This document shows positions 24,118 to 24,491 of a DNA stretch of 32,000 bases, piece after piece. The notes beneath the pieces were generated by a model, which ran no database searches, was not told where the DNA came from, and saw only the letters and a list, made by a program, of their open reading frames with translations. Location: NCBI RefSeq assembly GCF_000283555.1, contig NC_016012.1, forward strand, positions 240,001-272,000, given 5' to 3'. Source of the stretch: Candidatus Arthromitus sp. SFB-rat-Yit (GTDB lineage Bacteria; Bacillota; Clostridia; Clostridiales; Clostridiaceae). The position numbers and the translations under genes are program-made. The number at the start of each line of letters is the position of its first letter. Positions within the stretch are counted from its first letter, which is position 1.

Positions 24118-24179
24118 AAGGAAATGAAAGAGAGAACTTTTCCCTATTCAATTGTCAATGATCTATCTTCTTTAATAAT

Positions 24180-24254
24180 TGGCTCCGCGGAGAGGACTCG
24201 AACCTCCAACCTATCGGTTAACAGCCGAGTGCTCCACCATTGAGCTACCGCGGA
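24180..24254 (-). tRNA. tRNA-Asn (GTT), inverted duplicate copy inside the 16S-23S spacer (antisense to the operon; expression from this strand unproven)
   Basis: It is the exact reverse complement of the tRNA at 27563-27637. Confidence 0.7.
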
Positions 24255-24258
24255 ACAA

Positions 24259-24374
24259 ACTGGCAATGACTTACTCTTCCATAGGGGTAACCCTAAAGTA
24301 CCATCAGCACAGTGTAGCTTAACCTTCCTGTTCGGTATGGATAGGGGTGTTACCTACACGTTATAATCACCAGA
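24259..24374 (-). rRNA. rrf: 5S ribosomal RNA, inverted duplicate copy inside the 16S-23S spacer (antisense to the operon; expression unproven)
   Basis: It is the exact reverse complement of the 5S gene at 27443-27558. Confidence 0.7.
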
Positions 24375-24491
24375 TACTGAGAAATATTTTAATCTCTCAA
24401 AATTGTATATAAATAGTAAATAATGCGAAAGGTAGCAAGTTAAATTATTAGCAATAGTAATTTAAGAGCTGGAAAAAATATATAACAAATA

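Follow-up and report, generated by a model that had tools for sequence, protein, structure and literature searches.

An inverted 5S–tRNA-Asn copy in a 16S–23S spacer of SFB-rat-Yit: probably a template-switch chimera or a mis-finished tandem rrn array

Introduction

How does the spacer between a 16S and a 23S rRNA gene come to hold an inverted copy of the 5S and tRNA-Asn genes that lie beyond the 23S gene of the same operon, and does such an arrangement exist in the chromosome or only in its assembly? The question is raised by a tandem rrn locus of Candidatus Arthromitus sp. SFB-rat-Yit, whose assembly (one contig, 1,515,556 bp, 27.98% GC) was the only rat SFB genome as of March 2026 (PMC13153320). 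We analysed a window of 32,000 nucleotides at this locus (NC_016012.1, positions 240,001 to 272,000), for which an initial annotation, made from the sequence alone, had proposed that both ends of the inverted copy lie in natural rRNA processing stems and that the copy arose by gene conversion between the halves of these stems.

Results

Layout of the tandem rrn locus

Two rrn operons (A and B) follow each other at the end of the window (Table 1). The core of the operon A spacer is replaced by an inverted copy of the segment between 23S_A and 16S_B, and the spacer measures 376 nt instead of the normal 184 nt. The annotation had recognized an inverted 5S-tRNA segment in place of the core of the spacer, and rightly so: all the sequence strings that it quoted are found in the window, and the block is the exact reverse complement of its donor (276 of 276 nt identical, 24140-24415 against 27402-27677). 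A repeat finder reported the pair as a 283-nt inverted repeat (24137-24419 and 27398-27680; 99% identity, 2 mismatches), and the mismatches, at 24139 and 24416, delimit the exact core. An exact inverted match of 276 nt is far beyond what chance could supply. The tRNA-Asn and 5S genes inside spacer A lie on the minus strand, i.e., not in the sense orientation of a functional spacer tRNA.

Table 1. Features of the tandem rrn locus (positions in the window)
Feature	Position	Strand	Remarks
Strong promoter-like site TTGACC-17-TATACT	22462-22490	+	the sole strong one ahead of the tandem array
16S_A leader stem half	22521-22557	+	complementary to 24137-24173 apart from one position
16S_A, operon A	22597-24115	+	rRNA gene search of the window
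16S_A trailer start	24116-24139	+	same sequence in the other four operons
Left switch interval TT	24140-24141		between diagnostic bases 24139 and 24142
Inverted copy of 27402-27677	24140-24415	-	exact, 276 nt
tRNA-Asn(GTT), antisense copy	24180-24254	-	within the 16S_A-23S_A spacer
5S rRNA, antisense copy	24258-24374	-	within the 16S_A-23S_A spacer
Right switch interval, exact 17-mer AAAATTGTATATAAATA	24399-24415		common to the normal 23S leader (29330-29346) and the reverse complement of the 23S trailer
23S_A leader	24416-24491	+	identical to the normal spacer
23S_A, operon A	24492-27385	+	flanked on both sides by the 276-nt inverted repeat
Donor segment	27402-27677	+	23S trailer, 5S, tRNA-Asn and first 34 nt of the 16S_B leader
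5S, sense	27443-27559	+	downstream of 23S_A
tRNA-Asn(GTT), sense	27563-27637	+	between 5S and 16S_B
16S_B, operon B	27720-29238	+	rRNA gene search of the window
Normal spacer, operon B	29239-29422	+	184 nt; 13-mer at 29266-29278, 17-mer at 29330-29346
23S_B, operon B	starts 29423, runs on	+	second of the two tandem operons, at the window end

No terminator-like site was found in the scanned stretch 22300-24600 (upstream of the array and operon A as far as 24600), and the tandem array, with its single strong promoter-like site, may be one long transcription unit. Promoter-like matches on the minus strand near the antisense genes were weak, and the total number of sites was close to shuffle expectation; a functional minus-strand tRNA-Asn/5S unit was rejected, as no convincing promoter was found on that strand. 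The deposited layout pairs the only sense tRNA-Asn and a 5S with their upstream antisense copy in a perfect duplex of 276 bp, which RNase III would be expected to cut in the precursor (AAT and AAC together make up 7.8% of codons in 609 long rat ORFs). Directly upstream of the rrn promoter are two adjacent large ORFs of 442 and 908 aa (window 18358-22416), the position of which is kept in mouse SFB (about 81% DNA identity).

Junctions and processing stems

The junctions were mapped by comparing spacer A both with the normal spacer and with the inter-operon segment in reverse complement. At the left junction, spacer A agrees with the normal 16S trailer through 24141 and with the reverse-complemented leader from 24140 on; the base at 24139 (T) is of trailer type and that at 24142 (C) of leader-complement type. 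The interval between them lies within a 19-nt complementarity with 2 mismatches, a short way 5' of the exact 13-mer CCTATTCAATTGT (24143-24155). The proposal that the left junction falls within the leader/trailer complementarity thus holds, except that the TT interval is just 5' of the exact 13-mer and not inside it. The right junction is as had been described, an exact 17-mer that is common to the 23S leaders and complementary to the 23S trailer. Both complementarities are the natural processing stems of the 16S and 23S rRNAs: the leader and trailer of the 16S pair over 29 nt (83%; computed duplex energy -35.3 kcal/mol) and those of the 23S over 28 nt (89%; -38.4 kcal/mol). In operon A, the 16S leader/trailer stem has become a duplex of 37 bp with a computed energy of -59.5 kcal/mol (against -35.3 for the natural stem); the annotation had called it a perfect complement and we do so too, one exception being listed in Table 1. 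23S_A is bracketed by 276 bp of perfect complementarity.

Outside the inverted copy, the flanks of spacer A are identical to the normal spacer, which indicates a colinear return to the original template. The block therefore has the main attributes of a template switch, i.e., a reverse complement of nearby sequence, complementarity or microhomology at the switch points and colinear re-entry, but the donor is not situated in the same hairpin within some tens of bases; it lies on the far side of the 23S gene, about 3 kb downstream. Inverted joins whose junctions show short complementarity, as here, likewise characterize chimeras formed in vitro (PMC1855051).

An origin of the block in gene conversion of the ordinary kind, or in homologous recombination among rrn operons, the process behind concerted evolution and the one that the title of the initial annotation suggests, appears very improbable. 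The rRNA copies and four of the spacers in this genome are 100% identical, and inter-operon conversion is thus plausibly active, but it would have put in a normal spacer, and the exact homology flanking the block (2-17 nt) is far below what RecA-type recombination needs; no long flanking homology in inverted orientation was detected by the repeat finder in the window. Homologous conversion in the ordinary sense was rejected, given the inverted, non-homologous donor and the lack of long homology in the same orientation. The same features of the donor, together with exact homologies of only 2-17 nt, point to a template-switching polymerase and not to homologous recombination.

The junctions bear equally on a purely computational mis-join, in which a leftover contig with 5S and tRNA-Asn was placed backwards in the spacer gap through short overlaps in the stems, the consensus being mixed. 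The overlaps lie exactly at stem sequences of the kind expected at contig ends, the combination of T and C at 24139 and 24142 could be the consensus over a 19-nt overlap with 2 mismatches, and two copies of the segment were kept, as the read depth of three operons would suggest. Overlaps of 13-19 nt are, however, shorter than assemblers of that period accept, and an overlap or k-mer mis-join fits poorly with a left junction outside the exact 13-mer and with exact overlaps of just 13-17 nt, so that we hold such an origin to be rather unlikely. A simple turn-around in a k-mer graph through the exact 13-mer was rejected because the preceding base, C at 24142, is of leader-complement and not of trailer type. 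GS Assembler and Phrap were used in the sister project on mouse SFB (PMC3158464), which is no evidence for the rat genome.

Other operons and relatives

The rat genome has five rrn operons (genome coordinates 46036-50806, 54257-59027, 142240-147010, 262597-267559 and 267720-272490). All five copies of 16S, 23S and 5S are 100% identical, as are four of the five spacers (184 nt), and the 376-nt spacer occurs in operon A only. The total identity of the copies could reflect either concerted evolution or a consensus-based finishing of repeats; among the three tandem 23S copies of mouse SFB there are differences of 0-3 nt. The first rat operon is followed by tRNA-Lys(TTT) (genome 50807-50882) and not by tRNA-Asn, and the spacer flanking its 5S is 92% identical to that in the window.

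A search for the arrangement in other operons and in relatives, which the initial annotation had suggested as a check, gave no second instance. The inverted segment is absent from the four other rat operons and from all six mouse operons, and the arrangement was not found in 30 relatives. A pattern scan for an inverted tRNA 40-70 nt past the end of a 16S gene, run on 400 genomes of the class with the rat genome itself as positive control, matched only the latter. Among metagenome contigs there were no matches to the left end of the rat-type spacer and none to an SFB spacer followed by tRNA-Ile. SFB-type spacer left ends gave 0 matches in a genome collection in which the mouse genome was missed as well and from which, or from the output of which, near relatives seem to have been left out.

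For SFB-rat-Yit, 16 rRNA genes are given in Table 1 of PMC9482736, a number that fits 15 plus one extra 5S. The same table gives 18 rRNA genes for mouse-Japan and 15 for the nearly identical mouse-Yit; the copy number of the tandem array seems to vary among SFB assemblies, possibly through collapse.

The missing tRNA-Ile(GAU) and synteny with mouse SFB

SFB-mouse-Japan (G002; 1,620,005 bp), of the same genus, is the closest complete relative, and its locus is colinear with that of the rat on either flank of the rrn array. The mouse array comprises three tandem operons (G002:C1:301000-315700), that of the rat two (window 22597-32000). In the first mouse operon the spacer (G002:302523-302786) is 264 nt instead of 178 nt long and contains a tRNA-Ile(GAT) gene (G002:302593-302669), the sole copy in that genome. 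The mouse spacer resembles rat spacer A in genus, in its place in a syntenic array, in its position in the first operon and in the flanking stem sequences; it differs in that it carries tRNA-Ile(GAT) in sense orientation, whereas rat spacer A carries 5S and tRNA-Asn in antisense and no tRNA-Ile.

No tRNA-Ile(GAT) was found in the rat assembly: ARAGORN predicted 39 tRNAs, none with a GAT anticodon. With Infernal (RF00005), 38 tRNAs were detected in the rat and 39 in the mouse; when the two sets are matched by number and gene order, every mouse tRNA except the tRNA-Ile at 302593 has its counterpart in the rat. A blastn search of the rat genome with the mouse tRNA-Ile gene returned as its best match only a tRNA-Asp (83% over part of the length). 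In bacteria, AUU and AUC are decoded by tRNA-Ile(GAU), and the lysidine-modified CAU tRNA decodes AUA only. Of the 304,582 codons in the 609 long rat ORFs, 5.3% are ATT or ATC. Since these codons need tRNA-Ile(GAU) and its gene is absent, the “complete” rat genome must be wrong somewhere.

By synteny, the place of the missing gene would be the spacer now occupied by the inverted copy, and the true rat spacer should carry tRNA-Ile(GAU). Spacer A would then be a site from which necessary, genuine sequence has been displaced, as happens in chimeras. No match to tRNA-Ile(GAT) was obtained in the draft genomes of the genus (G001, G003 and G004), an absence of little weight because the rrn regions are unassembled in all three; the gene seems to be confined to rrn spacers in this genus and thus to be lost from short-read assemblies.

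Discussion

From the comparison of spacer A with the other operons and with the mouse locus, the inverted block is most probably not a real arrangement of the chromosome. We consider it probable (about 0.75) that a template switch primed by microhomology produced a chimera, in vitro or in a clone, or else that the tandem array was mis-finished. Either a chimeric molecule (a PCR product, amplified DNA or a rearranged clone) or an error of finishing would then have entered the sole rat SFB assembly, and the block would have displaced the true spacer, expected to carry tRNA-Ile(GAU). The purely computational mis-join is a subset of this explanation and indistinguishable from it on the present sequence; the switch itself may have taken place in vitro, within a clone or in silico.

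The junctions suggest the following course, in which synthesis would proceed along the minus strand with two primed switches. A nascent end within the stem of the 23S leader would prime on the complementary 23S trailer through an exact match of 17 nt, and the polymerase would next copy 5S, tRNA-Asn and the 16S leader up to ...ACAATTGAATAGGGAA; in a second switch, the ...ACAATTGAATAGGGAA end would re-prime on the 16S trailer through a match of 15 out of 16 nt. Folding of single-stranded rDNA into its stems would bring the two sites together over a distance of 3 kb, be it in PCR, during displacement amplification or in a plasmid clone. More than 85% of the rearrangements that arise in displacement amplification are inverted joins, and more than 70% of junctions are primed on complementarities of 2-21 nt, mostly in intramolecular events (Lasken and Stockwell 2007, PMC1855051). 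Those chimeras share with the rat block an inverted copy, loss of the intervening sequence and re-priming of a 3' end on 2-21 nt, and secondary structure favours the intramolecular events among them; the rat junctions (2-17 nt) lie inside strong stems. The rat case differs in that two switches regain colinearity within 276 nt and in that a chimera would have had to come through finishing.

Several observations argue for an artefact. The copy matches its donor in all 276 nt, against a difference of about 5% between rat and mouse in this segment; the only sense tRNA-Asn and a 5S would be buried in a duplex, a functional cost to the cell; the arrangement was not seen in any other operon or genome searched; and there is no second, independent rat SFB assembly. 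On the other side, it is uncommon in vitro for one molecule to undergo two switches that restore its colinearity, and a finished genome of the Sanger era normally needs several reads to back a 376-nt spacer. As for the placement of the missing gene, tRNA-Ile(GAU) could reside in a collapsed extra operon rather than in spacer A.

The block might instead have arisen in the living bacterium, by a double template switch (a large event of the quasipalindrome type or microhomology-mediated repair) through the processing stems, with tRNA-Ile in a collapsed third operon. We think this unlikely, though it has points in its favour. Quasipalindrome correction is a known templated route by which imperfect stems become perfect, and the left stem of operon A has been perfected as such a correction does. 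RNA hairpins can be newly made or perfected by template-switch mutations (Monttinen and Loytynoja 2022, PMC8794818), and the junction geometry fits the four-point model of such mutations: here, too, there is a reverse-complement copy with four switch points, and an imperfect stem (the 16S leader/trailer) has been perfected. The mouse array has three operons against two assembled in the rat, both genomes contain two copies of tRNA-Asn, and SFB DNA preparations are mixed populations (PMC3158464, for mouse SFB).

Known template-switch events, however, involve a few to tens of bases in one hairpin, whereas the rat block measures 276 nt and its donor is 3 kb off, far past the usual distances; unlike those events, it takes out a spacer in which an essential tRNA is expected. 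The skew reaches its minimum at about 1.5 kb and its maximum at about 728 kb, which puts the locus on the leading-strand replichore, and donor and acceptor would therefore not naturally be together at one fork. A 276-bp inverted repeat around the 23S gene would give the precursor a long perfect duplex and permit inversion of the 23S, no divergence is seen between copy and donor, and no other genome searched has the arrangement. Furthermore, an event in vivo requires an unassembled operon with tRNA-Ile, and even then the assembly would be in error at this locus.

Of the initial proposal, the stem-guided geometry is retained, since a copy in inverted orientation that rejoins the template colinearly, with both junctions in stems, fits a templated event; an origin in a living bacterium is not supported. 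Against such an origin stand the absence of tRNA-Ile(GAU) from the assembly, given that the syntenic mouse spacer holds the sole copy of that genome, and the lack of the arrangement in the other operons and relatives searched; template switching in vitro leaves the same junction signature (PMC1855051).

SFB-rat-Yit is the only rat SFB genome and a species reference, and its rrn array needs re-examination. If the block is an artefact, the reference is wrong at the tandem rrn locus, lacks tRNA-Ile(GAU), contains a spurious extra 5S and tRNA-Asn and is perhaps one operon short, which would affect rRNA and tRNA gene counts, copy-number corrections and studies of rRNA processing that use this reference. 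If the arrangement is real, it would be an unusually large template switch through RNA processing stems, it would mean that such stems can serve in DNA as substrates for long-range recombination or template switching, and it would offer a natural experiment on the way in which a cell deals with pre-rRNA that contains a perfect duplex of 276 bp.
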